Source: Chiloscyllium plagiosum
Taxonomy: Eukaryota
Reading direction: 5' to 3'
Length of the DNA stretch: 34,065 bases
Assembly (NCBI RefSeq): GCF_004010195.1
Contig: NC_057753.1
Span: forward strand, 10,315,823-10,349,887
In this document: positions 1-34,065 of the stretch, in pieces
Layout of the letters: every line of letters starts with the position of its first letter
Position numbering within the stretch: the stretch's first letter is position 1
Position numbers and translations under genes: made by a program
Notes under the pieces: model-generated
Told to the model about the DNA's origin: nothing
What the model saw: the letters and a program-made list of their open reading frames with translations, nothing else
Databases searched by the model: none

Positions 1-523
1 AAGTAGGATGGCATGGGAAAACAGAATGGTCCTTGATATGATTTTAGCGGAAAAAGGGGGTGTGTGTGTGATGTTAGGAGGAAGCTGTTGTATCATTATG
101 CCTAATAACACTGCACCTGATGGTTCAATTACTCGGGCCTGAAGGGGATTGACTACTTTAGCAGAGGAACTGGCTGAGAATTCAGGAGTAGACACATCTC
201 TCACGGGATGGCTTGAATCATGGTTTGGAAAATGGAAGGGGGTGGTGGTCTCCATCCTTACTTCCCTGATAGTAGTAGTCGGGGTATTGGTGGCCATTGG
301 CTGTTGTATCATACCCTGTATACGAGGGCTCACCCAGAGACTGATTGAGACAGCCTTAATGAAACAGATGTCCCTAAAGAGCAATCGGGGAGAAGGGCTC
401 TACCTGTTAAACATGGAGGGAATAAGCGACCTCGGGGAGATTTCCAAAATAAATGAAATTTCGGGAAAGGTGCTGGTCAATTTGGAAGCGACATATAAGA
501 AAAATGCAGAAGATTTCAAATGA
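1..523 (+). pseudogene. env: ERV env, TM subunit 3' end (upstream provirus unit), in-frame stop at 140-142
   Basis: Frame 2 reads RMAWENRMVLDMILAEKGGVC (immunosuppressive domain), CVMLGGSCC (CX6CC), then TGA at 140-142. It continues as ORF 149-523 with hydrophobic TM VVVSILTSLIVVVGVLVAIGCC and a cytoplasmic tail. Confidence 0.93.
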
Positions 524-528
524 TAATT

Positions 529-542
529 AAAGAAAAAGGGGG
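529..542 (+). promoter_or_regulatory. Polypurine tract (plus-strand primer site)
   Basis: AAAGAAAAAGGGGG lies between the env stop and the LTR start TG at 547. Confidence 0.9.
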
Positions 543-546
543 CAGT

Positions 547-1235
547 TGTGGGATATAGGTAAAGCAGTGTTACTTCTGCAACCATTATTACTTATGCAAG
601 GTAAATGAACTCACACCAGTGTATAATTGTTTCAGCCAAGAGCTGAGTCAACAAGAATGAAAACTATGTGAAGGAAATATATAATTGCTTTTGCATACAA
701 ATGTGCATACAAGAATGAAATGTGCCTGCAAACAATGGTAGATGTTACAGACAAATAGATAAGGTGCTGTGAGGGGAGGGGGTGTAGGTTTAGCTAGATA
801 TGCCTGTACAAACAGTTACAAAACAAGACCACCATCAAAAGGTCATAAGGCTCTGTGTAAATAAAGAATAAAAGGAAATATTGCTCTGGCTAGCATGGAA
901 ACAGATGGCAGTGAAGAAGGATAAATATCAATGAGACCACAGAGGGAGGTGGTCACACGGCGTTGTGAGGCCAGAGATAAACATTTTGTCACGGACAAGG
1001 ACGGATGAGTTCAAGATAAACAGCCAGGTTTAAATTAGAAACAGATGTAAACAGGGGAGGAGCAAAGGGAGGAAGGAAGAGAAACAAATTACATAAATAT
1101 TGTGTACTCGTTAAATTCAGTGTCTGTGGACAGTGGACACCACACCCCTCTTGCAAGAGCGTAATAAACGATACTACTGATTCAGATCTTGTCTTGGACT
1201 GAAATTATTGAAGTGAGTGAGCTTCGTTTCTCACA
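547..1235 (+). mobile_element. ERV LTR (LTR-A), shared between two tandem provirus units
   Basis: Termini TGTGGGA...TCTCACA; TATA-like TACATAAATA 1090-1099; palindrome CTCTTGCAAGAG 1148-1159; AATAAA 1163-1168. Near-identical copy at 6484-7227. PPT upstream and PBS downstream. Confidence 0.95.
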
Positions 1236-1237
1236 AT

Positions 1238-1255
1238 TGGGGGCTTGTCCAGGAT
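1238..1255 (+). promoter_or_regulatory. Primer binding site, tRNA-Pro type
   Basis: TGGGGGCTTGTCCAGGAT matches the canonical tRNA-Pro PBS TGGGGGCTCGTCCGGGAT at 16/18 and starts 2 nt after the LTR end. Confidence 0.92.
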
Positions 1256-1463
1256 ATTTATCCATCGCCGGGGGAAGTGGCTGGCCCTGGACACTGGGAA
1301 GACGCGGCCCGTTCCCAATTGAGGAGCGGTCCCGTGTCCCAAATTGGCCCACTCCCTTGGATGACTGGTACGAATCCCACAGGAGAGACATCTGAATCAG
1401 ACAGTGAAAGGAGGTTGATGGGAAATACGGCAAAAAGAGGCCAGGCAACTCTGTGCATAGACT

Positions 1464-1472
1464 AAGGTAAGA
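1464..1472 (+). promoter_or_regulatory. Probable ERV major splice donor; matching env acceptor candidate at 3952/3953
   Basis: AAG|GTAAGA in the leader before gag. Polypyrimidine tract TTGTCCTCCTCTTTGTCTTTCCTCAG|G in the integrase region. Confidence 0.6.
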
Positions 1473-1550
1473 AAATTGACTTTTAAGTACTGCCTTGGTG
1501 GCTGGGATTGAGTTTTAGTAGTTACTAAGGGACTAACAAAGGAAATTAAT

Positions 1551-2010
1551 ACGGGCTGTGCCGTGGGTAAGGAAAAAGCCTCCGTGAAAACAAAAGGAAA
1601 AAGGCAATGGAAATGGAGGCGGGGTCCCTTACAACATACCTCCAGAAAGTCTATTGGGCAGGATGTTGTGGAATTGGAAAAATAATACTTGTACACGGGA
1701 AAAAGATAGGAAAACGATGATTAAATATTGTTGCTTTGTATGGACTAAGGAATCCATTCTTCGTCACGCCGTCTTCTGGCCGAAGTACGGGTTGGATGAA
1801 GACTGGGTTTGTAGATATTTGAATTTATATGTCAATGAAAAACAGCCTTACAGTCAGGAGGGATCAGATTATGCTTCAAGTCGGAAGGGCTAGTAGCTGA
1901 AGGGCTACTGAGGGTACACTTTGTAACTAAATCATGGCCAGACATCCAGAAAAATATTCAAAAGATAGAGAGGTGAAGTGAGGAGCACCTAGAGGTGTTG
2001 TTGCGGGAAG
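1551..2010 (+). pseudogene. gag: ERV gag fragment: MA region fused by deletion to a short CA piece
   Basis: ACG-GGC-TGT (MGCAVGK-like start, mutated), then ORF 1654-1893 (RMLWNWK...MIKYCCFVW...FWPKYG...WVC..LNLYVN), typical of fish epsilon-type gag. Then LLRVHFVTKSWPDIQK. Confidence 0.8.
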
Positions 2011-2939
2011 CTCAGGAAGTGACTGTGAGATACGGTGTGTGTGTGAGAGAGAGAGAAAGAGCTGTACAGCTGGTAGAAAGTTTAACCCTTTGTGATTTGG
2101 TTTGAATGCACATTTGTTTGTTGGTGATTGAGTGTTTGTGCTTTGTTCCCTGGAACTTGAGATCCAGGACCGTTTTGAATCTGATTTCTAGCATTGAAAT
2201 TTAACATGATTTCTTTTAAGGTTAAGGATTTTACAGTGATTATGAAATAAAATGTTAAGTCCTCTTCTTTTTATAGGTCATGACTGCCTTACTATCAATT
2301 TCTAACTAATCTCTTTTATCCTTACGTAAAAGCGATTTATAGAGGACAGTTGAAGTTTGAGTTCTACATTAGATTGTAATAAAACAAAATCCTATGGTAA
2401 ATGTCCGTGCCCTTGGATTCGGCCATTATTCATGCATTAGATGTTTTTTTTAACTTGAATAGACAAATCCTTTTAAGGCAGCTCTGATTATTTCACGACC
2501 TATAGCATTGTAATTGAGCAATGACTGGTTAGGACTACTTAAGAAACTGATTTTGGATTTAAATTAAGGGACTAAAACTGTGTAATTATAGTGGATTTCA
2601 AAGTTGGTAATTTTATGCATTTTACATTTTAAATATTAAATACTGAATAAATGAATTTATAATATATAAATATATATTTACAAGTAAGGTTCCAAAATGT
2701 ATAGTTAGGAACAGGCTTTAAAGTTAGACAAGCATAACTTGATGAATTAGTATTTAAAGTTATGGGGAGCAAGAAATATTGCAATATTTCTTTAAAAAAA
2801 AATTTTTCAAGGTCTAAACAAGACATTGGGTGATGAAGCACGGCCATTTGGTGGCCCTAAAGCTGTTCAGTTGGTTAAATCGAGTCAGCAATTGATCTGG
2901 CAATGTAACGTGAGAAGTAGAAACAAAAGGCAAAAATAA

Positions 2940-3320
2940 TAATAGCCACGGTTGATGAGATAATAAAGAAAAGGACAAAACTAAACGAGAAAGAAACCGG
3001 AATGGTTGGGGAGGAGATGTTAAGGGGTCTGGTAGACAGGAACAAGGATCAAAGTGGAAATCCCCACAGGCGGGATGTTATTACTGTGGAAAGACAGGTC
3101 ACTTTAAGAGAGAGCGTCCAGATCCGAAAAAGGAAGTAAAGGCAGTGCCGTTTATGAACCTTGATGAAAAATAGGGGTGTCAGGAGTTCCTGCCCCTGGG
3201 GACCCACCAGGAACCCTTGATAAATTTAAAGGTCGGACTTTATAAAGAGGACATCGTTTTCCTAGTCGATACGGGGGCAGTAAGGTCATCCTTAAAATTT
3301 AAGCCCAAGGGAGCGGGAAC
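2940..3320 (+). pseudogene. gag-pro: ERV gag NC + readthrough TAG + protease N-terminus
   Basis: CYYCGKTGHFKRER zinc knuckle from 3076 (last Cys changed to Arg, CGT), TAG 3172-3174, then in-frame protease motif FLVDTGA (3259-3279). Confidence 0.92.
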
Positions 3321-3779
3321 AAAAGAATTAATTGGATTATGGCGACAGTTTTGTGATGAGAGGCAAGAAGAATCAGTTTTGCGCTTATGACGAGATCTTG
3401 ACACCAAATTGGGAACTGAATTAACTGCAAATAGTGCTATAGAATCTGTTGAGGTTCTTAAAAATGAATGTGCTCGAGCAAAACAATGACAGAAACAGAA
3501 TGAGAAGTCACAAGTGACTGGTAAACAAACAGAACTGCGCGATTACAGTTTTAAAAATGTTTTAGTCACTTGTTGCGTTTCCACCCTGAATTACAGATAA
3601 TGATTTTTATATAATATATAATTAATAATTAATATTTATAATAAATCGATTGTGTCAGCCTGAATCAATATTAATTGGCAGGATCCCTTCACACATTCTC
3701 AGTGACCTGTCATATTGATTCATGGTTAATTTAAAACATGAACTGCATTAATTCATCGTTAATTAAAGAATGGAAAGCT

Positions 3780-4238
3780 ACACTACTGGCTGATGAGGTA
3801 ACTAAAGAAGCAGCCCTGAATCCACAGGAAGCGGTGGTTTATTCCTCAATACCTATTGTCCCAGGTCCTTGGGAAGCTCCAATCCCAGAAACTAAAGATT
3901 TGTTCTTAAAGAAGTATATACTGGGCTTGTCCTCCTCTTTGTCTTTCCTCAGGAAACAGGGTTTATTGGCACAGACTCTGCCCCTCGAATTCGTTGTTCA
4001 TCCGATTCGACCAGGAGATTGGGTCTTAGTAAAATCATGGACAGAGACTAAAATGCAACTGGACTGGGAAGGGCCGTATCAGGCTCTTTTGACTACCGAA
4101 ACAGTGATAAGAATGGCAGAAAAAGGCTGGACTCACTACACTCGGATCAAAGGGCTAGTGGAATCTCCAGTTGAGGAAGAAGTCTGGACAGCCGAATCAA
4201 CGCAAGAACCACTGAAACTCAGGCTAAAGAGACTTTGA
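3780..4238 (+). pseudogene. pol: ERV pol remnant: RNase H tail (LADEVTKEAA) joined to integrase C-terminal domain
   Basis: ORF 3738-4238 contains PGDWVLVK...WEGPYQALLTT...GWTHYTRIK (GPY/F motif) and ends PLKLRLKRL. RT and the integrase core are absent. Confidence 0.9.
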
Positions 4239-4328
4239 GTAACTGATTATACAGTGGCGACTCGAGCGCGGGATTATTTCTGTAGGATTGTATATTAAGT
4301 CTTTTGGTGCTTCAGCTCGATGTTTAGA

Positions 4329-5480
4329 ATGCTGGGGATGCTTAGGGTTATGATATAAGCTCTCTTAGTATTGGGATTTTGTCAAATATTATTTTCATAT
4401 GTGTTATTGACAGTTCCTGAGTCTGATAATCCGCAGGTAATTGACGCTGATGCATGCAGCTTGGTGAATTGTGGGGATGTAGATAATCAAAGACAGTATC
4501 ACAGCTCAGAGATACATCTTAAATCCTACTGGGATGGCCTTGAGGATGGTACCTGGTATAATGGTCCCGTCACAGTACACCGGGCACCCTTCCGATCAGC
4601 TCTCGATTGTCCCGATAAAGAGCATAACCCAAAATACCTAACGATAAAGAAAACCAGCTGGCACGAACCAACTCTGGTGGGGGGGGGTGGAGCACCTATG
4701 AGATACAATTAGATGAAACATTTGGGATTGAAATGAAAGCAAACGGGAAGGATTTCTCGGGCTGTTGTTTTCGAATTAGCGTAGAACAGGGAAAAGGGAC
4801 AGAACTGTTGGATAATAAGATACAACCTTTTGCCCTTCCCAACAACCCAAAGGTGGTAAAAATTATAGAGATAAAGGACTTGAAACAGACCATCGAGATA
4901 GAGACTGGGTACGGGGATGCAAATGCCTGGGTTGAATGGGTAAAGTATACTGTAAAAAGTCTGAACAAAAGCAATTGCTATGGATGTGCCTCCGGTAGGC
5001 CAGTGGCCCAGGTGGTTCCCTTTCCGCTCAGGTGGAAGCGAGACAGGAAGGGCATGAAATGTATGATAGCCCTGTATCAGGATGAGACTGCATGGAATGA
5101 TAGGAATTGTACCTCCCTATCTCTGATGTTCCCTCCCTTGGAGAAGAAAGATGCAAAAGTTCCCCCACAGTTGGAAATCACACGTCGTGTGTGCACAGGC
5201 GAGGTACGAGTCGGTCGAGACATTTGGGGGAGCTGAAATTATGTACAGAGATGAAGAATATTACCGAAACGGAGAAGGGAGGGAACTACTCAGCACTAAA
5301 GGTTCCCCAAGCGGATCTGTGGTGGTACTGTGGAGGAAAAATATTGAGACCCACACTACCTCCGGATTGGAAAGGGATATGCGCAATTGTACAATTGGCA
5401 ATTCCATTTACCCTGGCATTTGAGAAGGAAAAGATAGTAGGGAAAAAGGGAAGGGGTAAGAGATTACTGTCAGATACTTC
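4329..5480 (+). pseudogene. env: ERV env SU subunit (second unit), frameshifted, truncated just after the furin site
   Basis: Hydrophobic signal-like start at 4329 with an internal stop. ORFs 4371-4712, 4733-5236 and 5107-5493 contain IETGYGDANAWVEW, CXXC motif CYGC 4976-4987, LWWYCG..LPPDWKGICA and furin site RGKR 5452-5463. Confidence 0.9.
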
Positions 5481-5699
5481 TTATTTTGCATGAAATTTTA
5501 GCGAGCATTCCCCCTTCCATTCCTTATCAATTTTTCCATTACCTTTACTTATGATCCTTTTCTTTTTATATATTATTGTAGACTAAGTCTAGTTACCATG
5601 TCTACCAAAGTATAAGATGAAAATACTTTTTTTCCTGATCCCATACTTAACTATCCCATAAAGCTTGTTAAGAGGAAGGGTGGCATTAAGGAAACTGGT

Positions 5700-5806
5700 G
5701 AAATCTATATTGATCCCATGTGTTGGAGGGTCCCATAATGGAAGATGAAGTGTTCTTCCTCCAGGTGTCAGGTGGCTAGAGTTTGGCGATGGAGGCAGCC
5801 CAGGAG
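5700..5806 (-). mobile_element. Penelope-like element, GIY-YIG C-terminal fragment
   Basis: Minus strand reads LEEEHFIFHYGTLQHMG, homologous to KLKERHLIFGLGGL in the Penelope piece at ~27 kb. Confidence 0.7.
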
Positions 5807-5819
5807 GTAAATGGTGCCT

Positions 5820-6010
5820 GTCTGCCCCCCTCCCTCCGTCAGAAACCGCCCGCTGAGTCGATGAGAAAACCGCAGCCTCGCACCGCCATCTTTGTTTTTC
5901 TTCTTCTTTCCGTCTCCGCCTTCAGTGACGCGCGTCATCCGCGTCCCCTCCAATCAGAGCGCACCTTACTCCGTCTGACCAATGGCAGCCGGCTTAGCAG
6001 TCGATAGGGG
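5820..6010 (-). promoter_or_regulatory. CpG-rich Pol II promoter-like element, probably leftward
   Basis: CCAAT at 5950-5954 and 5979-5983, palindrome TGACGCGCGTCA 5926-5937, YY1-type AAGATGGCGG on - at 5883-5892. CpG is dense in an otherwise CpG-poor background. Confidence 0.6.
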
Positions 6011-6118
6011 ACCCACAACACGGGATCTCACTCTCCGATTGATCCACACCGACCACAGACTTTGGGATTAGTGAAGAGGTTGGCAAGAGCATCATTGTCT
6101 CCGCCCCTTTCTATTCCC

Positions 6119-6340
6119 ATTCATTCATGCAACAGGAGCGAACCTAATTTACTGTAATGGGCCCTCTCGGGACACAGTGGTAGTGTCCCATGTTCAGGAG
6201 GAAGGTGCTTCCATTCATTCAACAGAAGAGGACCTATTTACTACAGAGGTATTTTTGAGGCGCAGTGGTAGTGTCCCTACATCTGAGCCCTGAGGCCCAG
6301 GTTTAAATTCCCACTGCTCCAGCGATGTGTAAAACATCCT
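6119..6340 (+). repeat. tRNA-derived SINE head with a partial tandem duplication of its 5' flank
   Basis: A-box-like GGCGCAGTGGTAG and B-box-like GGTTTAAATTCC. The segment TCATTCA..AACAG..ACCTA.TTTACT..CAGTGGTAGTGTCCC occurs at ~6119-6189 and ~6212-6277. Confidence 0.55.
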
Positions 6341-6359
6341 CAATCAACTCTTTTAATCA

Positions 6360-6445
6360 TAAGTCATAGGACACCAAATTATATTCCAACAGGTTTATTT
6401 GAAATCACAAGCTCTTGGAGCGTAGCCCCTTCATCAGGTGAAGTC
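6360..6445 (-). mobile_element. Penelope-derived terminal-repeat fragment with degenerate hammerhead core
   Basis: Same family as 23543-23945, 25455-25870 and 27786-28040. Minus strand reads CAC-CTGATGA-A-GGGGC-TAC-GCTCC-AAGA. Confidence 0.65.
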
Positions 6446-6483
6446 ATGAAAGAAAGTGCAGGAAACAGAATTCAGGTTAATGA

Positions 6484-7227
6484 TGTGGGATATAGGTAAA
6501 GCAGTGTTATTTCTGCAATCATAATTGTTTATGCAAGGTAAATGAACTCACACCAGTGTATAATTGTTTCAGCCAAGAGCTGAGCTAACAAGAATGAAAA
6601 CTATGTGAAGGAAATATATAATTGCTTTTGCATTAGCTAAAATGTGCATTAAAGAATGAAATGTGCCTGCAAACAATGGTAGATGTTACAGACAAATAGA
6701 TAAGGTGCTGTGAGGGGAGGAGGTGTAGGTTTAGCTAGATATGCCTGTACAAAAAGTTACAAGCATCTGTTTCCTGCTTTAGCAAAAACAAAACAAGACC
6801 ACCATCAAAAGGTCATAAGGCTCTGTGTAAATAAAGAATAAAAGGAAATATTACTCTGGCTAGTATGGAAACAGATGGCAGTGAAGAAGGATAACTAACA
6901 ATGAGACCACAGAGGGAGGTGGTCACACGGCGTTGTGAGGCCAGAGATAAACATTTTGTCACGGACAAGGCCGGATGAGTTCAGAGATAAACAGCCGGGT
7001 TTAGATTAGAAACAGATGTAAACAGGGGAGGAGCAAAGGGAGGAGGGAAGAGAAACAAATTACATAAATATTGTGTACTCGTTAAATTCAATGTGTGTGT
7101 GTGTGTGTGCGCGCTTTGTGGACAGTGGACACCACACCCCTCTTGCAAGAGCGTAATAAACGATACTACTGATTCAGATCTTGTCTTGGACTGAAATTAT
7201 TGAAGTGAGGGAGCTTCATTTCTCACA
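6484..7227 (+). mobile_element. Solo LTR (LTR-B) of the same ERV family
   Basis: Aligns end to end with 547-1235, apart from a ~29-bp insert near 6762-6790 and a (TG)n expansion near 7092-7110. Flanked by ATGA at 6480-6483 and 7228-7231. No PPT or PBS adjacent. Confidence 0.95.
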
Positions 7228-7682
7228 ATGATGAACTATGGATGGTAATGAAAGACAGAGCATCTCAACGGTCAATTGCACACTTCCACTCCTATTTCTG
7301 ATCTTCTCAATATATGGCAAGTTGTGTGTTTTCCAAACAATAATCTTATTTCCATGGTTTAAAAATGAATATTAAAGGATGGTCTGTTTGTTCTTTCTCG
7401 CTTAGGCACATTATAGCCCACAATAATTTACTGTATATAGCACTGTAAATATCATAAATCCTCTCATGAGATATCACAGGAGCAGTTCATAAGTGAAATT
7501 TGACACTGGGTCACTCAAGTAGAGATTAGAACAGAGAAAGCATCCTGCAGATATTGGGAATCTAACTAAAAGTCATCAATCTGAAGTGTTAACAGGTTTT
7601 CACTTTCCAATGATGCTGCTTGACCTGCAGAGTATTCTTAGCATTTTACTTTTTATTCCAGGATGACATGGGAACTTTTTAT

Positions 7683-8630
7683 ATTCATTCATGGGCCGAT
7701 ATATTTTGACCTTCCGAGTTGTCCTTGAGAAGGTAGTGGTGAGTTGTCTTCTTGAACCTCTGCAGTCCATGTGCTGTAAGTTGGCCCAGAATGGGGTGGC
7801 AGAATGGCTCAGTGGTTAGCACTGCTGCCTCACAGTGCTAGGGGCACCAATTCCATTCCTGCCTCAGGCCACTGTCTGTGTAGAGTTTGCACATTCTCCC
7901 CATGTCTGCATGGGTTTCCTCTGGGTGCCCTGGTTTCCTCCCACAATCCAAAAAATGTGCAGGCCAGGTGAATTGGCCATAGTGTTAGGTGCAGTAATCA
8001 GAGGTAAATATAGGGTCAGGGAATGGGTCTGGGTGGGTTACTCTTTGGAGGGTCGGTGTGGACTTGTAGGGCCAAATGGCCTATTTCCATACTGTAGGGA
8101 ATCTGATCAATGCCATTAGGAAGGGAATTCCAGGATTTTGACCCAGCGCCAGTGAAGGAACTGCGATAAATTTCCAAATCAAGATGATGAGTGACTTGGA
8201 GAGAAACTTGCAGGTGATGGTATTCCCATGTATCTGTTGCCCTTGTCCTTCTAGCTGGAAGTGCTTGTGGGCTGGAAAGTACTATCTAACAATGCTTAGT
8301 GAATTTCTGCAGTGCATCTTATATATAGGACACACTGTTGTTACTGAGCAACAGTTGTGGAGGGAGTGGATGTCTGTGAACGTGGTGCCAGTCGAGCCGG
8401 CTGTTTTGACCTGGATGGTGTCAAGTTTCTCTTCAGTGTTGTTGGAGATGCTCCTAACCAAGCAAGTGGGGATTATTCCATCACATTCCTGGCGTGTACC
8501 TTGTAGTTGGAGGACAGGCTTTGGGGTTTGAGGTGGTGAGCTACATGATTCATAGACACTGGTCTGCTCTTTTGCCGCAGTGTATCAGTTCAGTTTCTAG
8601 TCAATGGTAAACCCCAAGATGTTCAAAAGT
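7683..8630 (-). mobile_element. CR1/L2-superfamily LINE 3' region, split by a SINE at 7794-8108
   Basis: Characteristic 3' end (CCTTGAGAAGGTAGTGGTGAGTTGTCTTCTTGAACC on +) continues collinearly after the SINE into degenerate RT-end sequence. Confidence 0.65.
7794..8108 (+). mobile_element. HE1-like tRNA-derived SINE
   Basis: Head TGGCTCAGTGGTTAGCACTGCTGCCTCACAG, core GAGTTTGCACATTCTCCCC, tail CCATACTGTAGGGAATCT. At least seven copies in the window. Confidence 0.85.
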
Positions 8631-8924
8631 GTGTGACCAAAAACTTGGTCAAAATGCAGGATTATTGTAACACAACAGGCAAGTAAATTTGGAGAACCTA
8701 CGGTGGGATAATGGTGGTGATGTTGGTGGTGGTAGTGATGGGGTGGGGCTTGAATCCATAGATTGAGGAGAGTAGGAATTCAGAAATGAGTTGTGAGGCA
8801 GATTGAGCTCACAGAGTTTGGGAGGATGACCATATTTAAACCAAGTATGAACTTTGTAATGGAGGCTTGCCAGATCAGGAGCCAAAGTAGATCAGCAGGC
8901 ATGGGGGTGAGGAGTGGAGGGTAC

Positions 8925-9060
8925 TTAGAGTCTTAGAACTATATAGCTGATCCAACTGATCCATGTCAACCAGCTATTCTAAAATAATCTAGTCCCATTT
9001 GCCAGCATTTGGCCCATGTCCCTCCAAATCCTTCCTATTCATGTTGTAACAGCTTCCACT
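8925..9060 (-). mobile_element. CR1 LINE 3' tail fragment
   Basis: AATCTAGTCCCATTTGCCAGCATTTGGCCCATGTCCCTCC is shared with 23358-23470, 24187-24980 and 30842-31618. Confidence 0.75.
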
Positions 9061-10832
9061 ACATCGAGGGAAGTTATTTTGATTGAACAGGGAAATAAGA
9101 AAGGGATGATCACCTGACAGGGATTGTAATAGACCCCCTAAGTGTCAGCAAGAAATCGAGAAACAAATTTGTCAGGAGGTTTCAGTTTTCTGTGAGAATA
9201 ATAGGATGGTTACGGTAGAGAATTTTAACTTTCCAAACATAGATTGGGACTGCCATACTGCTCAGGGTTTAGAAGGAGAGGAATCTTTTCTGATTTGGTA
9301 CGTGGATATTGCTACTAGAGAAGGCGCAAAACTTGACCTACTTTTGGGAAATAAGTCAGGGCAGGTGACTGAGGTGCCAGTGGGGAAGCAGTGTGGGGCC
9401 AGCGACGATAATTCTATTGGTTTTAAAATAGTGATGGAAAAGGTTAGACCGGATCTAAAAACTGAAGTTCTAAATTGGAGGAAGGCTAATTTTGATGGTA
9501 TCAGGCAAGAACTTTCAAAAGCTAATTGGGGGCAGATATTCGCAGGTAAAGGAATAGTTGGAAAATAGGAAGCCTTCAAAAGTTAGATCGTGAGAGTCCA
9601 GAGCCAGTATATTCCTGTCAAGGTAAAAGAAAACGCTGGGCAGGTGTAGGGCATACTGGAGGAGTACAGAAATTAACGTTTTGGTTAACGAATAAAAGGA
9701 AGCACATGACAAGTATAGACAGGAGAAATGAAATTAATCCTTAGAGTATACTTAAGGAGGAGTATACTTAAGAGGGAAATCAGGAGGACGAAAAGAGGAC
9801 ATGAGATAGCTTTGGCAAATAGGGTTTTGGAGAATCCAAAGGGTTTTTTATATAAATACATTAAGGACAAAAGGATAACTAGGGAGAGAATAGGGCCCGA
9901 AAAATGTGTTGCTGGAAAAGCGCAGCAGGTCAGGCAACATCCAAGGAGTAGGAGAATCGACGTTTCGAGCATAAGCCCTTTTTATGCCCGAAACGTCGAT
10001 TCTCCTGCTCCTTGGATGCTGCCTGACCTGCTGCGCTTTTCCAGCAACANNNNNNNNNNNNNNNNNNNNNNNNNNNNNNNNNNNNNNNNNNNNNNNNNNN
10101 NNNNNNNNNNNNNNNNNNNNNNNNNNNNNNNNNNNNNNNNNNNNNNNNNNNNNNNNNNNNNNNNNNNNNNNNNNNNNNNNNNNNNNNNNNNNNNNNNNNN
10201 NNNNNNNNNNNNNNNNNNNNNNNNNNNNNNNNNNNNNNNNNNNNNNNNNNNNNNNNNNNNNNNNNNNNNNNNNNNNNNNNNNNNNNNNNNNNNNNNNNNN
10301 NNNNNNNNNNNNNNNNNNNNNNNNNNNNNNNNNNNNNNNNNNNNNNNNNNNNNNNNNNNNNNNNNNNNNNNNNNNNNNNNNNNNNGTTTTTACAAATACA
10401 TTAAGGACAAAAGAGTAACTAGGGAGAGAATAGGGCCCCTCAAAGATCTGCAAGGCTAAGTGTGGAGCTGCAGGAGGTGGAGGAGAAATTAAACAAGTAT
10501 TTTGCATCAGTGTTTACTGTGGAGAAGGACATGGAAGATATAGAATGTTGGTAAGTCCAGAACTAGACAGCATTGGTTCAGGGTGAGAGGGGAAAGTTGA
10601 AAAGAGACCTAAGGGGCAACGTTTTTCATGCAGAGGGTGGTGTGTGTAAGAAATGAGCTGCCAGAGGAAGTGGTGGAGGCTGGTACAATTGCAGCATATA
10701 AAAGGTACCTGGATGAATAGGAAGGGTTTAGCAGGATATGTGCCAAATGTGACTAGATTAGGTTAGGATATCTGGTTGGCATGGAGAGTTGGACCAAGTC
10801 TATTTCCATGCTGAACATTTCTATGACTCTAT
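9060..10832 (+). mobile_element. CR1 LINE (endonuclease-to-linker part plus 3' end), interrupted by a Penelope hairpin and a gap
   Basis: ORF 9206-9568 NFNFPNIDW...TREGAKLDLLLGN...SDDNSI..LNWRKANFDGIRQEL; NPKGFLYKYIKDKRITRERIGP; 3' tail TCTATGACTCTATG. Confidence 0.88.
9899..10049. mobile_element. Penelope-derived fold-back (68-bp inverted repeat)
   Basis: Arms 9907-9974 and 9982-10049 are reverse complements with 3 mismatches around a 7-nt loop. Confidence 0.85.
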
Positions 10833-12654: not shown

Positions 12655-13426
12655 ATTTTGCTCCCCCCATTCCCTGGGACGTAAACCATTTCATGTCTGG
12701 TTGCTTCTCAAGAAGCTGTATTGGACATTCATCCTGAATTGGCAAGCTTTGCTTTCTTCCCAAAATCAGACCTGCTTAGTCTCATAAATATCCCAATGTT
12801 GTGAAAGGTGTTAGCTTTCAAATATGGTTATCCAAAATTTAAAGATGTTTTGACATTTTTACTTTCTCTGCTTCTATAAGATCCTGAATCAGCACCTTCA
12901 GGAGAATTAGTTAGAGCGGAGTGAGAACAGAGGGAGAGAGAGTTTTGTGGAATAACAAAAAAAGTGTTCCGCAGAATGTAGAGTTGGTTGTTCTGAATTT
13001 CCACCCTGGACTGACAGTGATAACTTTTGTAATCTCTTTTTACAGTATTTGAAGGTCTGAAGACAGAGTTTCAAAATGAACAGATTATGCCTGAAAAGTT
13101 GACTCTCCTGCTCCTCGAATGCTGCCTGACTTGCTGTGTTTCTCCAGCACCGCACTTTCCAGCGTCTGCTGACCTCACTTTCACGTCAATGTCTGACAGT
13201 CACTCAATCCATTGGGACCGCAACAATTTTCAACTGATTCTGTGAGAAGGAGCAAAGCTTTTTGGTTCCTGTTTCAGTACGTTTTCAGTATCAGTGGGAC
13301 TGGATAAGAGACCCTCCTGTCGCAGAGCACTGAGTGTGGAGCCTGAAACAGTTATACGACCTGGAAAGAGGAACTGACCGCAGGGAGGGCCTGTACACAC
13401 ATTTGTGTGCGGCTGAAGCTTCAGCC

Positions 13427-14602
13427 ATGGAGAACCCTGAGGAATCCCGTCCTGTGGAGAAACCGTGGAAATGTGGCGACTGTGGGAAAGGCTTCCGTGT
13501 CCCATCTGCCCTGGAGACCCATCGACGCAGTCACACCGGGGAGAGGCCATTTTCCTGTTCCGAGTGCGGGAAGGGATTTGTTCAGGCCTCCCACCTGCTG
13601 GCCCACCAGCGGGTGCACACTGGTGACTGGAGGTCCACCTGCCCTGTGTGCGGAAAGGGCTTTACCCAGGCCTCCCACCTGCTGGCCCACCAGCGAGTCC
13701 ACACTGGGGAGAAGCCATTCACCTGCTCCGTGTGCGGCAAGGGCTTCGCCCATTCCTCCCATCTTGTGGCCCATCGGCGGGTCCACACAGGGGAGAGGCC
13801 ATTCTCCTGCTCAGTGTGCGGGAAGGGCTTCAGCCAGGCCTCCCACCTCCAGACACACCGGCGGGTCCACACGGGAGAGAGGCCGTTCTCCTGCCCTGAG
13901 TGTGGGAGGGGCTTTGCTCTCTCCTCCCACCTGCTGATCCACCGACGGCTCCACACGGGAGAGAGGCCGTTCGCCTGCCCCGACTGCGGGAAGGCCTTCT
14001 GTGATCCATCAGCCCTGCGCACCCACCGGCGTGTCCACACGAGGGAGAGGCCGTTCTCCTGCCCCGACTGCGGGAAGGCCTTCAGCCAGTCGTCCACCCT
14101 GCTAATCCATCGGCGGGTCCACACCCGGGAGATGCCCTACAGCTGCCCCGAGTGCGGGAAGCGGTTCACCCAGGCCTCCAACCTGGTAGCTCATTGGCGG
14201 GTCCATACCGGGGAGAGGCCCTTCAGCTGCCCTGAGTGTGGGAAGGCCTTCAGTGATTCCTCCGCCCTGCTGAGGCACCAGCGGGTCCACACCGGGGAGA
14301 GACCCTTCAGCTGTCCTGAGTGTGGCAAGGGCTTCACCCGCTCCTACCACCTGGTGGCCCACCAGCGGGGGCACATCGGCGTGAGGCAGTTCATCTGCTC
14401 CAAGTGTGGGAAGGACTTTGTCGACTCATCCGACCTGCTTAGGCACCGGCGAGTGCACACCAGGGAGAGGCCATTTGCCTGCCCAGAGTGTGGACGGAGG
14501 TTCACGTTGTCCTGCAACTTGCGGAGACACCAGCGGGGGCACCAGAGCTCCCAACAATTGGATTCCACTGGCGAAGCTGCTGTGGGTCACCCCCAGGACT
14601 GA
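13427..14602 (+). CDS. C2H2 (Krueppel-type) zinc-finger protein, 391 aa, 13 tandem fingers, no KRAB/SCAN/BTB domain
   Basis: Uninterrupted ORF; ATG in Kozak context GCCATGG at 13427; 13 C-X2-C-X12-H-X3-H fingers, mostly with TGE[RK]P linkers; GC-rich codon usage. Confidence 0.93.
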   Translation: MENPEESRPVEKPWKCGDCGKGFRVPSALETHRRSHTGERPFSCSECGKGFVQASHLLAHQRVHTGDWRSTCPVCGKGFTQASHLLAHQRVHTGEKPFTCSVCGKGFAHSSHLVAHRRVHTGERPFSCSVCGKGFSQASHLQTHRRVHTGERPFSCPECGRGFALSSHLLIHRRLHTGERPFACPDCGKAFCDPSALRTHRRVHTRERPFSCPDCGKAFSQSSTLLIHRRVHTREMPYSCPECGKRFTQASNLVAHWRVHTGERPFSCPECGKAFSDSSALLRHQRVHTGERPFSCPECGKGFTRSYHLVAHQRGHIGVRQFICSKCGKDFVDSSDLLRHRRVHTRERPFACPECGRRFTLSCNLRRHQRGHQSSQQLDSTGEAAVGHPQD

Positions 14603-21679: not shown

Positions 21680-21960
21680 GGGCAGTGTGGAGTCAAACAG
21701 ACTGCTGTGGATCTGGAGTCACATGTAGGCCAGACCAGATAAAGGATGCAGCTGGGGTGACCGAGTGAATCCTTTCCCAAAACAGCAGTCTCCTCTCTAA
21801 AAAGGGCGTGAGTGAATCAGATGTGGGTTTTCTCCAGCCCACCGAAAATGGTTTCATCGTTAGATTCTGACCGAATTCCAATTCCGCTATCTGCTGCGAT
21901 GGGATTCAAACCCAGCAGATCCCAGAACTGGGTTGATAGCCTGGTTGATAATGGCACTTG
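21680..21960 (-). mobile_element. tRNA-headed SINE (second family) overlapping the 3' end of the - strand ZNF ORF
   Basis: GGATCTGGAGTCACATGTAGGCCAGACCAGAT core as at 17240-17530; B-box GGGATTCAAACC 21901-21912. Confidence 0.7.
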
Positions 21961-22466
21961 GACGTCGCTCCTTCAATCCCCCGCGATGACACGTGAACTC
22001 GCTGGTGCCTCTGCAGGAGGGAGGAGCGGGTGAAGCCTTTCCCACACTCAGGGCAGCTGAAGGGCCTTTCCCCCGTGTGGATCCGTTGGTGCCTCAGCAG
22101 GTAGGAGGAATCGCTGAAGGCCTTCCCGCACTCAGGACAGCTGAAGGGTCGCTCCCCTGTGTGGACCCGCTCATGCTTCAGCTTGTCGGAGGAATTGCTG
22201 AAGGGCCTCTCCCCAGTGTGGATCCGCCGGTGGGTCAGCAGATCGGAGGAACGGCTGAAGGCCTTCCCGCAATCGGGGCAGCTGAAGGGCCTCTCCCCCG
22301 TGTGGACCCGCTGGTGCCTCCGCAGGGCAGAGGTCTGGACAAAGCCCTTCCTGCACTTGGGACAGGAGAATGGCCTCTCCCCGGTGTGACTGCGCCGATG
22401 AATCTCCAGCTCAGACGGAGTACGGAAGCCTTTCCCACAGTTACCACACTTCCACGGTTTCTTCAT
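21906..22466 (-). CDS. C2H2 zinc-finger protein, 186 aa, 5 intact fingers plus one internally deleted finger (gene or young pseudogene)
   Basis: Open frame from ATG 22466 ([12 protein letters not shown]...). Finger 4 lacks CPxCGKAFS. Upstream 22470-23170 is collinear with 12730-13430. Acceptor TCTCTTCTTAG intact at 22828. Confidence 0.8.
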
Positions 22467-23220
22467 GTCCGAAGCTTTAGCCACAAACACATGTACAGCC
22501 CCTCCCTGCTGTGAATTTCTCTTTCCAGGCCATATAACTGTTTCAGGCTCCACACTCAGTGTGCTGCAACAGTAGGGTCTCTCATCTAGGCCCACTCTTA
22601 TTGAAGACGTACTCAAACAGGAACCAAAAAGCTTTGCTCCTTCTCACAGAATTGTAGTCAAAAATCGTTGCACTCCCGATCGATTGAATGACTGTCAGAT
22701 AGTGACGTGAAATTGAGGACCGCAGACGTGGGAGAGTCAGTGTCGAAAAGTGCGGTGCTGGAAAAGCACAGCAGGTCAGACAGTATCCGAGGAGCAGGAG
22801 AGTCAATGTTTCAGATCTTCAAATATTCTAAGAAGAGATTACAGAAGTCATCACTGTCAGTGCAGGGTAGAAATTCAGAACAAGCAATTCTACTTTCTAC
22901 AGAACATTCTTTTCTTTTGTTAGTCTACAAAACTGAAAGCACCATCCCACTCTCTTCCCCCCTTCTGTTCTCACTCCATTCCAACTAATTCTCCTGAAGG
23001 TGCTGATTCAGCAGGGGCAGAAAATCAAAAACGTCAAGACTGACATCTCTCTGCATATTGGTTAACTCCACCTGAAAGTTAATCTCTTTCACAACATTGG
23101 GATACTGCTGAGAGTGAGCAGGTCTGATTTTGGGAAGCAAAACAAAATGCGTCAAGTCAGGATGAATCGGGAACACAGCTTGAGGAATAACCAGACACAT
23201 CAAGGCATTAACACAGACAG

Positions 23221-27424: not shown

Positions 27425-28140
27425 GCCAATTGCGACACAGACCTGGAGCAACGTTTCCAGAGGCTGTCCCCACCCCGATTCACTCCCCTTCCTTTCAGTT
27501 GCAGCAAGTCAACACCTGGATCCCTGAATGAAAAAATAAATGGAAAACGTGAGGAGAAAAGAGAGTGTTGTACTCACAGATGTTGGACAGAGGAAGGAGA
27601 TTGCAGGCTGGAGTGAAGCTCAATCTTCATTTACAAAGAGAGGAGCAGCAGAAGCTCACGGTCCAACTTCCGCATTCAGATAATGGGGCTTACTCTGATT
27701 GGTAGGAGGGCTAATCTCCTTCCGGTCCTTCAGTGCTCCCTATTGGACAATCAAAAGAAGGTCGCACGTCTTTTTTGCGATTCGGAGATGCCGGTGTTGG
27801 ACTGGGGTGTACAAAGTTAAAAATCACACAACACCAGGTTATAGTCCAACAGGCTTCCGGTCCTTCAGTGCTCCCTATTGGACAATCAAAAGAAGGTCGC
27901 GCGCCTTTTTTTTGCGATTTGGAGATGCCGGTGTTGGACTGGGGTGTACAAAGTTAAAAATCACACAACACCAGGTTAGAGTCCAACAGGTTCAATTGGA
28001 AGCACACTAGCTTTCGGAGCGACGCTCCTTCATCAGTGGTTTGCTGACACCGGCGGGCGTGTGCACTGCTTTGCTGACACCGGCAAATATGCGCAGTATG
28101 TTCTTTGGGGATGCTGCTGTTATTGACAGATTTTAAGTGT
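27425..28140 (-). promoter_or_regulatory. ZNF-associated promoter/first-exon cassette, copy B (probable exon 1 of the - strand ZNF), carrying a Penelope insert and a tandem duplication
   Basis: Reverse-complement homology to 19150-19622; intact donor (ACTCAC 27572-27577 on +); CCAAT and CGGAAG motifs on -. Confidence 0.7.
27719..27990. repeat. Tandem duplication, 135 bp + 137 bp
   Basis: 27719-27853 and 27854-27990 are near-identical (CTTCCGGTCC...TCCAACAGG). Confidence 0.95.
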
Positions 28141-28319
28141 CCAAACGCCAAAAGGAAAAAAAGGGCAGAGCCACAATCTCTCTCTCTCTCCCCCATCCCC
28201 GTGGTTCGACATTTTATTGCTTTTGCAATTTGTTTCGTTGCTCAACTTTTGTATATCTTTTCCCCTTGTTGAGAGAGTGTCCCAGTGAGTTGATTGTTGG
28301 AGAAGAAGCATTACACTGT

Positions 28320-28499
28320 ACACAGCAGGGGGTGACTGTACACGTTTCCTGAGTGTGATCACAGTTTCGATTGTTCATCGGAAACAGAGAGACAAAAGGA
28401 CACCAGAACTGTGGAAATGTGGGGACTGTGGGAAGAGATTTCAGTCCTTGTCGGCACTGGAGATTCATCAGCTCAGTCGTAGTGGGAAGAGGCTGTTCT
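28320..28499 (+). pseudogene. C2H2 ZNF relic (first finger only)
   Basis: ELWKCGDCGKRFQSLSALEIHQLSRSGKRLF is the family's diagnostic first finger with the last His lost. Confidence 0.8.
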
Positions 28500-28539
28500 T
28501 CAAAAAATTAATACAACATTATTTCCCATTGACAAAAAC

Positions 28540-29000
28540 ACATTCACACTGCCTGATTACCTTGAACTTATACAAGTGCCTTGTCATAACATCTTTAATA
28601 ATAGCTTTGAACATTTCCTATATGACATATGTTAAGATAAATGGTCTGCAGCTTCCTGTTCTCGGTCTCCCTTTTTGAAGAAAGCAGTTTTCCAATCTAA
28701 AAAAAACTTTCCTGAAACTAGTGAGGTTTGGAAAATTAAAACCAATACATTAACAATTTCATTAGCTAGTTTTTCTTTAAAGGTCCAGGATGAAATCCTT
28801 CGGGTACCTGGGACTTGTCAATTCGTAGTTCCAACAGTTTACTCAGTACTACTTCCCTGGTAATTGTAATTTTCTTCAGGTCCTCCCTCCCTTTCAATTC
28901 CTGATTTACAGCTAGTTCTCGGGTGTTACTTGTATCCTCTCTAGTGAAGACAGATTCAAGCTCTTTTCAATTCATCTGCCATCTCTTTATCCTCCGTTGC
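28540..29000 (-). mobile_element. Old CR1 RT fragment
   Basis: Minus strand reads DKSQVPEGFHPGPLK..LANEIVNVLVLIFQTSL, resembling the CR1 motif DKSPGPDGxHPRxLKE. Confidence 0.7.
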
Positions 29001-30000
29001 TGAATCTCTAGACTCATTTTTTACATTTTTATATTTTGGCTAACTTTTTAACCTTAATTGCTGTGCTCCTGCGTGGATTATTTCTGTTGTATTGCCCGAG
29101 CTCTCAACTCTAGCATCAACCTGTCTGTTTATTCTATTGAACTGACCTTGGTTAAATGTTACAAAACACACAAGGGCAAATCTTTCCTCTCCAGAAAATC
29201 TCCGTCCTTAAAATGATAAAATACACTCTGAAATATTGTTCATTCAAACTTTACCAAGCACACCCTACAGATTTGAAATCTCACAATGGCACCCAGTTTT
29301 GTTATGATCTTTAATTTTAAAGAGAATTTTGAATATCCAGTGATTAACTGGAAGAACTGTTCATTAAGTTTTTTACATTTTTAAACAAAAAAACTCAATT
29401 AACTGGAGTAACTTAGCAGAATAACATGTCTGGCCTTAAATTGTAAATCTAGTTTTCTTTACTTCCTTGCAAGAGTTCTCACAAATCTTTACATGAATCT
29501 TGATAGTTCATTCACTTTATGAGAATCGTCCAAGGCATGCAACATCTCTCTGGGATTCACTTGACTCCTTCTCAGGATTTCAAGTATTCAAGGCAATTTT
29601 ATGATGGTGCCTCCATTAGTTTTTGGCTAAATGAGCTTCCAGGTTTCATTTGAAACTTCAAAGGTTTAGACTGATCAGTTTGAAGGTCGGTTGAAAACAC
29701 CCCTGGTTCCTCATGGCCCTCTGTACTTTTAGTCTTACAGCATCTAGTGCCTGAGTAACTAAAATGCTGCTGAACATAAACTCCAGCAATGGAATTGTTC
29801 GAGTGTTCTCACCACCTGAAATAATAATGGGGGCAATCTCAGTCAAGAAAGCACAACAATGCCTCTTTCCCTCTGGAAGTTTTTGAAATTCCGCATGTCC
29901 ATAAGGACCCTCTCCAATATTTACAGATGCATTACAGAAAGTAACGGCCTGGTATGGCTACTGCTGTGCCCAGAACCATAAGAAACCAGAGTCATAGAGA

Positions 30001-30840
30001 TTCTGGATTAGTGGTGCTGGAAGACCACAGCAGTTCAGGCAGCATCCAAGGAGCAGCGAAATCGACGTTTCAGGCAAAAGCCCTTCATCAGGAATAAAGG
30101 CAGAGAGCCTGAAGCGTGGAGAGATAAGCTGGAACTGTACCACACCCCCCTACAACCCACCGTCCCATCCTGGCACCTTCCCCTGCCACCGCAGGAACTG
30201 TAAAACCTGCGCCCACACCTCCTCCCTCACCTCTATCCAGGGCCCTAAAGGAGCCTTCCACATCCATCAAAGTTTTACTTGCACATCCACTAATATCATT
30301 TATTGTATCTGTTGCTCCCGATGCGGTCTCCTCTACATTGGGGAGACTGGGCGCCTCCTAGCAGAGCGCTTTAGGGAACATNNNNNNNNNNNNNNNNNNN
30401 NNNNNNNNNNNNNNNNNNNNNNNNNNNNNNNNNNNNNNNNNNNNNNNNNNNNNNNNNNNNNNNNNNNNNNNNNNNNNNNNNNNNNNNNNNNNNNNNNNNN
30501 NNNNNNNNNNNNNNNNNNNNNNNNNNNNNNNNNNNNNNNNNNNNNNNNNNNNNNNNNNNNNNNNNNNNNNNNNNNNNNNNNNNNNNNNNNNNNNNNNNNN
30601 NNNNNNNNNNNNNNNNNNNNNNNNNNNNNNNNNNNNNNNNNNNNNNNNNNNNNNNNNNNNNTCCCCACCCTCCTCTAGCTTATCTCTCCACGCTTCAGGC
30701 TGTCTGCCTTTATTCCTGATGAAGGGCTTTTGCCCGAAACATCGATTTCGCTGCTCCTTGGATGCTGCCTGAACTGCTGTGCTCTTCCAGCACCACTGAT
30801 CCAGAATCTGGTTTCCAGCATCTGCAGTCATTGTTTTTAC
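30001..30840 (+). mobile_element. Penelope-like element with 5' inverted terminal repeat, GIY-YIG ORF fragment and TSD
   Basis: PCHRRNCKTCAH...NIIYCICCSRCGLLYIGETGRLLAERFREH (30181-30381). 30001-30130 is inverted relative to ~30677-30806. Direct repeat ACCAGAGTCATAGAGAT at 29985-30001 and 30839-30855. Confidence 0.92.
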
Positions 30841-32825: not shown

Positions 32826-33464
32826 TGTGAGAAACACTTCAATAATTTCAGTCCGAGGCCAAAAATCTGAACTAGTAGTGCCGCTTTATTTGTACACTTG
32901 CAAGTGGGTGCAATGCCTAAAGCCAGGTAAGACAATGACAAATGCACATCAAATCCAACAAACTCTCGAAATTTATACAGTTTGAATCCCCATATTTTTT
33001 TCTTATTCCATTGTTTGCTCCCTCCATCTGCTTACGTCACTCATTTCCTTAAGACTGATCCCACAACTTCTGTTTATCCGGCCTTGTCAGTGACAAATGT
33101 CTGCTCCCATAAAGTTGTTTGACGTCATCCCACCCTTTGCTTACCATTATCTGCTCCCTCCATCTGCGATGCCCCTCACAGCATCTTATCACTAAGCCCT
33201 TTTAATTGGGGTTTGTTCCTGTGTCTCTGTACAAGTGGGAAACAGATGTTTATAAAGGCCTCTTTTCACAGCATTTTATCTAGTGCCTGTATTTCTACCA
33301 TTGTTCTGTAATCACGTCTCGTGCTAAGTCCTTCCTCTATGTACTTCCCATTTTTGCTAACTCAGCTCCTTGCTGAGAAAACAATCACAGACTAATGTGA
33401 ATTCATTTACTCTGTATCAGAACTTATAATTTGCAGAAATAACATCAATTCACCGATATCCCAA
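32826..33464 (-). mobile_element. 3' LTR (LTR-C) of a divergent sister ERV
   Basis: Minus strand begins TTGGGATATCGGT and ends GGACTGAAATTATTGAAGTGTTTCTCACA. Ends align to LTR-A and the U3 middle is diverged. PPT AAAAGAAAAAGGGGAAA at ~33466-33482. Confidence 0.9.
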
Positions 33465-33484
33465 ATTTCCCCTTTTTCTTTTGA

Positions 33485-33750
33485 TTACCATTTGTTATCT
33501 TCTGCATTCTTGTCTCTTTTTTTTTAAAATCGTTCCCAAAATTCGCAAGCATCATTTCAGAGATTTCATCCATCTTGGTTTCACTCATCTCCTCATTATT
33601 TAGCCGATAAAGTTCCTCTGTCTGATTCCCTCTTAGGGGCATCTGTTTCATCAAGGCTGTTTTCAATCAGCTTTGGGTGAGCCCTCGTATACAGGGTATG
33701 ACACAACAGCCAATGGCCACCAATACCCCGACTACTACTATCAGGGAAGT
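33485..33750 (-). pseudogene. env: ERV env TM/cytoplasmic tail fragment
   Basis: Reverse complement nearly matches 260-400 (ACTTCCCTGATAGTAGTAGTCGGGGTATTGGTGGCCATTGGCTGTTGT..; LIE/KTALMKQM). Confidence 0.92.
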
Positions 33751-34065
33751 TAGGTGGGTAGGGGCGGGCTGCCTTAGAGTGGTCGGAAGGTGAGAGGGGC
33801 GGGGGCTTGCTGGGTCTGTATTGTCTGCACTTTTGTATGTAACAGTACTGTCTAATGTACAACTGTCATTGCTGTTGTCTCTTTATATCTTTGTGAAACT
33901 GGGATTTGAGGTTTGTCCTCATGTCCCTGTAAACTGTTTGAATGGTAGGGTTTGGGGCCTGGCTTTGCTGCTCCTCTCCCTTGTAAAATTGCTGTCTCTT
34001 GTATGCAGCTGTAAATCTAACTGTTTGTTGTAAACTGTTTTTGTAATTTGTTTAATAAAATAAAA
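33751..34065 (+). mobile_element. Probable 5'-truncated L1/Tx1-type LINE 3' UTR inserted in env
   Basis: env homology ends abruptly at 33750. A G-run block and a T/G-rich tract follow, then AATAAAATAAAA at the window edge. Confidence 0.5.

Follow-up and report, generated by a model that had tools for sequence, protein, structure and literature searches.

A possible shared-LTR tandem junction between endogenous retroviral sequences of the shark Chiloscyllium plagiosum

Retroviral parts of the locus

We analysed a 34,065-nucleotide stretch of the C. plagiosum assembly (contig NC_057753.1; hereafter the window). At its left end (positions 1–5487), the assembly presents an env TM tail, a polypurine tract (PPT), an LTR (LTR-A), a tRNA-Pro PBS and gag, in that order. 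The following features were recognized.

1–523, plus strand: 3′ part of env, comprising TM with immunosuppressive domain (ISD), CX6CC (65–91), membrane span and tail (Pfam TLV_coat, E 3.8e-06)
529–546, plus strand: polypurine tract and spacer, a native 3′-LTR junction (purine tract, by sequence, about 529–542)
547–1235, plus strand: LTR-A, 689 bp, TG...CA, AATAAA at 1163
1238–1255, plus strand: PBS of tRNA-Pro type, a native 5′-LTR junction, 2 nt downstream of LTR-A (16/18)
1627–2030, plus strand: gag remnant, N-terminal part fused directly to the end of CA, middle gone
2031–2915, no strand: AT-rich non-coding stretch inside gag, 885 bp, 32% GC, with GTGAGA on either side (2025–2030 and 2910–2915)
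2916–3330, plus strand: end of gag with CCHC knuckle (3073–3114; zf-CCHC, E 5.1e-05), in-frame TAG (3172–3174), protease start
3331–3760, no strand: about 430 bp, 33% GC, in place of RT and most of RNase H, with no match to a pol homologue
3768–4238, plus strand: RNase H tail and linker fused to the C-terminal part of integrase, core missing (P0014 residues 43–80, then 323–462)
4320–5487, plus strand: env signal region and SU, with CXXC at 4976–4987, to just past the furin site (P0001 residues 2–152, 121–281 and 284–391)
5488–6483, no strand: non-viral DNA between the downstream env and LTR-B, with no env match, an AT-rich stretch and a SINE-like piece
6484–7227, plus strand: LTR-B, a solo LTR of the same subfamily as LTR-A, with a 4-bp target-site duplication (TSD; ATGA/ATGA), no PPT and no PBS
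32826–33754, minus strand: second env tail, PPT and related LTR-C, about 73% identical to the LTR-A region

The upstream env frame (2–523), cut on its 5′ side by the window start, corresponds to residues 466–622 of P0001, an intact shark Env. The two are identical at 114 of 121 positions over residues 466–586, but at just 20 of 40 tail positions. This TM has an internal stop and 7/121 changes; it is decayed and is therefore not a majority copy. The purine-tract/LTR junction of LTR-A is also found at the related LTR-C. On the other side of LTR-A, the PBS differs by 2 mismatches from the MLV PBS-Pro 18-mer, a motif confirmed in PMC4587795; it is the sole match in the window, and any match arose in 1 of 100 shuffles. 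As the first-pass annotation had described, LTR-A is a single LTR with env and PPT on its 5′ side and PBS and gag on its 3′ side.

The downstream unit is gutted, being without most of CA, RT and the integrase core. P0020 aligned by tblastn to the gag remnant with residues 11–96 at 1627–1878 (52%) and residues 343–392 at 1881–2030 (48%), and its Gag_p30 domain spans residues 197–391. This homology derives from the pol matches, to which P0020 belongs, and not from the gag search with longer proteins, whose 13 candidates included 1 match, a Hemiscyllium fucolectin model that looks chimeric. The 885-bp stretch at 2031–2915 appears to be an insertion in gag. The TAG lies in frame ahead of the protease start, in agreement with the readthrough stop previously proposed, and the protease start breaks off at about 3320–3330 (P0013 residues 2–24 at 3247–3315; RVP E 0.041, below the cut-off). 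The RT-bearing proteins P0015–P0018 and P0021 gave no tblastn match in 3331–3760, and there was no Pfam match in 3331–3486. The integrase tail (about 3880–4235) matches MLVIN_C (E 8.2e-08). Three different frames carry the downstream env, its signal region contains a stop, and it ends abruptly at about 5487; its SU is identical to P0001 at 119/132 and 94/108 positions. The CXXC of this SU and the CX6CC of the upstream TM bear out the Env motifs noted earlier. TM, PPT and 3′ LTR are absent from this unit. Because env ends at about 5487 and LTR-B is solo, no outer 3′ LTR closes it, which later truncation of the second unit would explain.

LTR-A and LTR-B align end to end with 665 of 688 positions identical (96.7%; 23 substitutions and 5 indels), and their 3.3% divergence is not taken as an age, because the two need not be a cognate pair. 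LTR-A lacks two segments, one of 29 bp that LTR-B and LTR-C share and one of 21 bp found in LTR-B. The ATGA/ATGA duplication (chance about 0.005) belongs to solo LTR-B only and is no part of the tandem. LTR-B was rejected as the 3′ LTR of the downstream unit, because it has its own TSD and no PPT. The env tail at LTR-C is of the P0001 type (33/39). Within the non-viral DNA, positions 5830–6060 form a CpG/CCAAT promoter-like stretch (CpG o/e 1.17), positions 6371–6437 recur at two other places in the window, and a short minus-strand fragment is presumably Penelope-like on a six-frame reading. Scans for tRNAs and Rfam families gave 0 matches.

Origin of the env–LTR–gag order

The halves on either side of LTR-A do not overlap (P0001 residues 466–622 on the left, 2–391 on the right), and no sequence of the upstream unit recurs in the downstream one within the window. 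Positions 1–5487 therefore amount to one circularly permuted one-LTR unit, with no second full unit seen, and, as the halves have no sequence in common, their common origin is not measurable. For both halves the nearest env lineage is that of P0001 (TM 94%, SU 87–90%) rather than P0002 (84.5% and 67–77%), and their private branch lengths are alike (0.042 and 0.05) in a tree of 14/24 env proteins. Because no starred clade of that tree holds either half, the lineage assignment is based on identity, and the divergent upstream tail points to a lineage mosaic, so that 'same lineage' is a loose constraint. Of the tandem array originally suggested, the env–PPT–LTR–PBS–gag order stands, but the array does not follow: the window holds one permuted unit's worth of sequence, without repeats. 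Such an amount may come from a tandem array, and would also be expected from a misjoin or a one-LTR circle.

We favour, with a probability of about 0.5, a real, old shared-LTR tandem junction made by LTR–LTR recombination, which is the likeliest natural cause of this order. In this model, a 3′ LTR would have recombined homologously with a 5′ LTR to leave a single LTR with env–PPT on its left and PBS–gag on its right. The partners could have been the LTR pair of a single provirus, brought together by misaligned chromatids, yielding a tandem duplication and a reciprocal solo LTR; or they could have belonged to two adjacent proviruses in the same direction. A full unit would be expected to the left, and the right-hand unit would be a defective derivative that lost TM, PPT and 3′ LTR in an independent event at about 5487, either a deletion or a rearrangement. 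We favour a join that exists in the DNA because LTR-A meets internal sequence exactly on both sides, which is not expected from integrase insertion; because both halves lie nearest the P0001 lineage with similar private branch lengths; because the upstream TM, itself decayed, is no majority copy; because positions 1–10049 contain no N; because LTR-A has its own deletions and shares identical runs of at most 93 bp with LTR-B, a length bridgeable by reads of 100–150 nt; and because the mechanism has been published for HML-2, plants and kangaroo centromeres. We rejected the idea that integrase placed one provirus inside another, since this would leave a disrupted LTR or an extra TSD, whereas both junctions are native. 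Counting against the shared-LTR tandem, an arbitrary window start would be expected inside the non-overlapping span in only 13–15% of cases, the window has gaps of unequal size, the env lineage is mosaic, and copies nearer to LTR-A than LTR-B is may occur elsewhere.

Less probably, the assembly was misjoined through a collapsed LTR, and the true locus reads host–LTR-A–truncated provirus–host. In that tentative scenario, ERV copies would form a loop in the assembly graph, and the contig would possibly have left the true 5′ LTR by a wrong edge, into the env–PPT of another copy. The sequence would fit one trip round such a loop, without overlap and starting about 222 bp past the exit of the second unit from env, and the start of the window in the most conserved part of env and an end on an A-rich repeat tail resemble what contig breaks might look like. 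The three window gaps are unequal (336, 170 and 280 N), suggesting short-read scaffolding, and at least three related LTRs lie within 34 kb; LTR tandems in short-read assemblies are described in PMC11899658 as hard to separate from artefacts, which also favours a misjoin. By contrast, decay is equal in both halves, LTR-A differs from LTR-B at least every 93 bp with no gap near the junctions, and a real recent tandem would likewise break a short-read contig about here. Among 24 sequencing runs listed, 19 share part of the stretch and none shares half of its words (best 0.33), so the runs are read as relatives. If it is a misjoin, the locus shows that ERVs in gapped assemblies should be annotated with care.

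An inserted one-LTR circle, opened in env between residues 391 and 466 and captured by integrase-free repair (host–TM–LTR–gag...SU–host), is improbable. It predicts what is seen, each part once and in permuted order, and PMC11899658 considers both one-LTR circles and insertion independent of integrase for LTR retrotransposons; however, it would be rare relative to unequal crossover, and its left junction would lie beyond the window. The similarly oriented solo LTR of the same subfamily next door, 3.3% diverged, is in its favour, but is unremarkable given the high ERV density here. A title-level search for permuted or re-inserted circles gave HIV, halovirus and Drosophila papers and no ERV case. 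If the left flank is that of a permuted one-LTR circle, the locus would record the past re-insertion of such a circle in the germ line of a vertebrate. In its boldest form, which we consider highly improbable, LTR–LTR recombination excised a germ-line one-LTR circle from the provirus that left LTR-B, and the circle, opened inside env, inserted again about 1 kb from there, independently of integrase; the two reciprocal outcomes of solo-LTR formation would in that case have survived next to each other.

Least likely of all, LTR-A and LTR-B once flanked a single provirus, host DNA has taken the place of its env end, and the upstream env is a neighbour's. Their shared direction, 5.9-kb spacing and 96.7% identity fit such a pair, but LTR-B has its own TSD and lacks a PPT, 1 kb of non-viral DNA intervenes, and the native PPT junction of LTR-A is left unexplained.

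Tandem proviruses in other genomes

HERV-K(HML-2) forms tandem proviruses at 7p22.1 and 6q14.1 (PMC11807958) and tandem arrays at 13 loci (bioRxiv 10.64898/2026.09.22.753638). As in our favoured reading, an LTR is common to the env of one unit and the gag of the next, and unequal LTR–LTR recombination is invoked. Those tandems, however, have at least three LTRs, complete units and long-read support, whereas the shark locus has the middle LTR only and a gutted, truncated second unit, belongs to a class I virus and is known from assembly sequence. In a rice pangenome of 76 accessions, 266 LTR-retrotransposon tandems were reported (PMC11899658, which also cites kangaroo (centromere) and yeast cases). 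These likewise have an internal LTR common to the units, with recombination and multimer or circle-derived insertion as proposed mechanisms, but they are not env-bearing retroviruses and were confirmed by long reads that span them, together with an outer TSD. A literature search on tandem proviruses in fish listed mammalian papers only, and the word 'tandem' does not occur in the main text of a study of anamniote class I ERVs with gamma-type Env (10.1101/2021.11.23.469661). The structure and mechanism are already established, and the shark copy is dead and incomplete; if real, it would extend shared-LTR tandems to a cartilaginous fish.

Family and relatives

Class I retroviruses are marked by gag-pro readthrough of a single stop, one CCHC knuckle and an MLV-type integrase tail. 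At the shark locus, gag-pro is one frame with a single stop, and there are one knuckle and such a tail; Env is of gamma type, with ISD and CX6CC in TM and CXXC in SU. Judged by these marks, the family belongs to the class I ERVs, has a gamma-type Env and is intact in Chiloscyllium punctatum. The relative P0015 (56–57% in the integrase tail) has MLV-type RT chains as best matches, in a comparison without an epsilon reference. Epsilonretrovirus proper was rejected, because its Env is not of gamma type according to 10.1101/2021.11.23.469661. That study describes ERV-GA.a-Cpu and 46 orthologous groups in Chiloscyllium, the genus of our best protein matches; compared by description only, these ERVs likewise have gamma-type Env with ISD and CX6CC.

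RefSeq contains 12 C. punctatum env proteins, P0001 (XP_072430390.1) among them, that cluster at 90% identity, and Chiloscyllium gamma-type-Env lineages are catalogued in 10.1101/2021.11.23.469661, which weakens the suggestion that the family may be undescribed. In viral_contigs, none of 11 pattern matches to the integrase tail and neither of 2 to P0001 was confirmed; in metagenome_contigs, P0001 gave 31, with 0 confirmed. The nearest solved structures to P0001 include syncytin-1 and -2. The C. punctatum cluster resembles the shark locus at 87–94% identity over SU and the TM ectodomain, but the cytoplasmic tail of P0001 matches that of the env at LTR-C and not that of the env before LTR-A, so at least two types of 3′ end share this env.

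Paired junctions on a single LTR

Both sides of one LTR, designated LTR-A, carry retroviral sequence, and a related LTR (LTR-C) lies at the opposite end of the window.

LTRs and env tails in the window
2–523, plus strand: env TM frame, left of LTR-A (TLV_coat, E 3.8e-06)
547–1235, plus strand: LTR-A, bounded by TG and CA
32826–33754, minus strand: second env tail, PPT and LTR-C, with an abrupt start

A purine tract lies between the env TM frame and LTR-A, and the same tract–LTR junction recurs at the minus-strand LTR-C. On the right, a PBS two bases from LTR-A matches the MLV PBS-Pro motif at 16 of 18 positions; this motif has a single match in the window and had any match in 1 of 100 shuffles. 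Given the tract on the left and the PBS on the right, LTR-A has a native 3'-type and a native 5'-type junction, a pairing that is not chance. The first-pass annotation had placed env and a PPT left of this LTR and a Pro-type PBS and gag right of it, and the TM frame, purine tract, PBS and gag residues were all found. Aligned end to end with LTR-B (6484–7227, same subfamily), LTR-A is identical at 665 of 688 aligned positions, with five indels.

Insertion by integrase would either disrupt an LTR or add a TSD, so integrase cannot make the LTR-A junction; both junctions of LTR-A are native, and this route was rejected. Recombination between the two LTRs of one provirus, on misaligned chromatids, could give the junction. 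Alternatively, neighbouring same-direction proviruses could recombine to give the same local sequence, a plausible route in a zinc-finger region as rich in ERVs as this one. By whichever recombination route, the truncation at ~5487 would be a separate event.

The upstream env corresponds to residues 466–622 of P0001 (XP_072430390.1, an intact Chiloscyllium punctatum env) and the downstream env to residues 2–391; no sequence is in duplicate across the two halves, and 74 codons are in neither. Because nothing is duplicated and the halves do not overlap, 1–5487 amounts to one circularly permuted one-LTR unit. Of the tandem provirus array proposed earlier, the junction stands, being present in the assembly; the array stays conjectural, with one permuted unit's worth of sequence and no part twice. 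With a full unit to the left, an arbitrarily placed window would begin within the non-overlapping span in 13–15% of cases. Three readings predict non-overlap: an assembly walk around a collapsed repeat, an inserted one-LTR circle, and a real tandem with a contig break, in the form that contigs break where units become alike.

A real join or an assembly artefact

Known here from the assembly alone, the LTR-A junction would be real and made by recombination with a probability of about 0.5. Both env halves are nearest to the same env, P0001, which we count in favour of a real join: the TM half is identical to it at 114 of 121 positions (84.5% to P0002, a more distant env) and the SU half at 119 of 132 and 94 of 108 (67–77% to P0002). 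Also in favour, the two halves have similar terminal branches (0.042 and 0.05, each from its own tree). Each tree had 15 rows and drew on 14 of the 24 env proteins, with P0011, P0012 and eight partial members of the cluster excluded; in neither tree did the window row fall inside a starred clade. Carrying a stop and other private changes, the upstream TM is not a majority copy. Likewise in favour, a 29-bp segment shared by LTR-B and LTR-C is absent from LTR-A, LTR-A and LTR-B are identical over at most 93 bp at a stretch, and the window sequence has no N bases before 10050.

A misjoin, made by an assembly walk around a collapsed repeat, is a less likely explanation. Against a real join, the three N gaps in the window (336, 170 and 280 N) suggest short-read scaffolding, and LTR copies closer to LTR-A may exist elsewhere. 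Furthermore, the upstream env tail is identical to P0001 at 20 of 40 positions and LTR-C's copy at 33 of 39, a difference that makes the lineage a mosaic. Among the sequencing runs listed, the highest share of the window's words was 0.33. An inserted one-LTR circle is improbable. That a permuted circle went in next to its own reciprocal product, a solo LTR, is hardly credible; if true, it would be the sole reading to raise the importance of the locus.

The truncated unit and its right flank

Judged from its coding remnants, the second unit, right of LTR-A, is gutted. By homology to proteins, gag runs from residues 11–96 of P0020, a gag homologue, directly to 343–392, and most of CA is therefore missing. 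An 885-bp AT-rich stretch (2031–2915) follows, flanked by the 6-bp direct repeat GTGAGA, and then, in order, a CCHC knuckle, an in-frame TAG and the protease start, bearing out the readthrough TAG noted previously. At the expected place of RT, ~430 bp of AT-rich sequence (3331–3760) had no match to pol homologues; it stays in frame with protease for ~90 codons, with two stops. These two stretches take the place of gag and pol parts, and could mark a non-autonomous subfamily or be captured DNA. Another natural deletion form, protease-to-integrase, is seen in P0013. The RNase H tail is joined to the integrase tail, with the integrase core missing, and env residues 2–391 are spread over three frames and end just past the furin site.

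No env homology was matched beyond ~5487, where the DNA is non-viral, comprising a CpG-rich promoter-like stretch and a SINE-like piece. The stretch at 5830–6060 (o/e 1.17, two CCAAT boxes) adjoins the truncated ERV and is probably a host promoter, perhaps that of the downstream zinc-finger gene. LTR-B is flanked by ATGA at either end (chance ~0.005), with neither PPT nor PBS beside it, and is thus a solo LTR; the 4-bp TSD listed in the first-pass annotation belongs to this element and not to the tandem.

Related elements and neighbouring genes

Shared-LTR tandems have been described for HML-2 at 7p22.1 and 6q14.1 (PMC11807958), and 13 HML-2 loci are reported to carry them, in as many as six copies (10.64898/2026.09.22.753638). 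A plant study describes them as widespread there and cites examples from kangaroo and yeast (PMC11899658). Among the titles from a literature search on tandem proviruses, fish included, there were mammalian cases alone. The structure type is already known, and LTR-A adds at best another example.

The ERV family is class I with a gamma-type Env; RT is missing from the window copy, and the Pol type (gamma- or epsilon-like) lies outside this assignment. Intact envs of the family are annotated in C. punctatum as a cluster of 12, which points to a related carpet shark as the probable host. Six of these (P0027, P0029–P0032 and P0036) have nearly the same altered C-terminus, which suggests an amplified env-deleted subfamily. 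Gamma-type-Env ERVs are reported from cartilaginous fish, among them a lineage named ERV-GA.a-Cpu and, from Chiloscyllium, 46 orthologous groups (10.1101/2021.11.23.469661). These have the Env type of the window family, and Chiloscyllium is the genus with the best protein hits. Elephant shark ERVs are placed near epsilonretroviruses and snakehead retrovirus (PMC4422223).

P0001 closely resembles ERV envs of birds, with 76–86% identity in TM and 55–61% in SU for the three of six bird envs measured (turkey and two pheasant), and the integrase tail shares 50% identity with barn swallow pol. Under a midpoint root only, the SU tree puts its five bird rows together with those of carpet shark and Mustelus, apart from Scyliorhinus. 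As outlined in PMC6001957, its gamma clade is amniote-only and its epsilon clade absent from birds; given those limits, the shark–bird env link may be worth a proper tree.

Zinc-finger features in the window (C2H2, Pfam)
13334–14602, plus strand: array exon
21906–22643, minus strand: array exon
28289–28678, plus strand: one-finger relic

Pfam counts 13 and 5 fingers in the array exons, which together with the relic make up a zinc-finger gene cluster. A 137-bp tandem duplication (95%; 27719–27990) and a 96% inverted pair around the 280-N gap (29998–30133 and 30674–30809) stem either from recent SINE events or from artefacts of scaffolding. Adjoining the second env tail and LTR-C, 33755–34065 resembles a LINE 3' end, the A-rich tail of which closes the window; one env lineage is here common to two 3'-end/LTR types. 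The first 24 residues of P0025, a Hemiscyllium ocellatum 'fucolectin-like isoform X1' model, match the window ERV gag at 22 of 24; either the first exon comes from an ERV or the annotation is chimeric.
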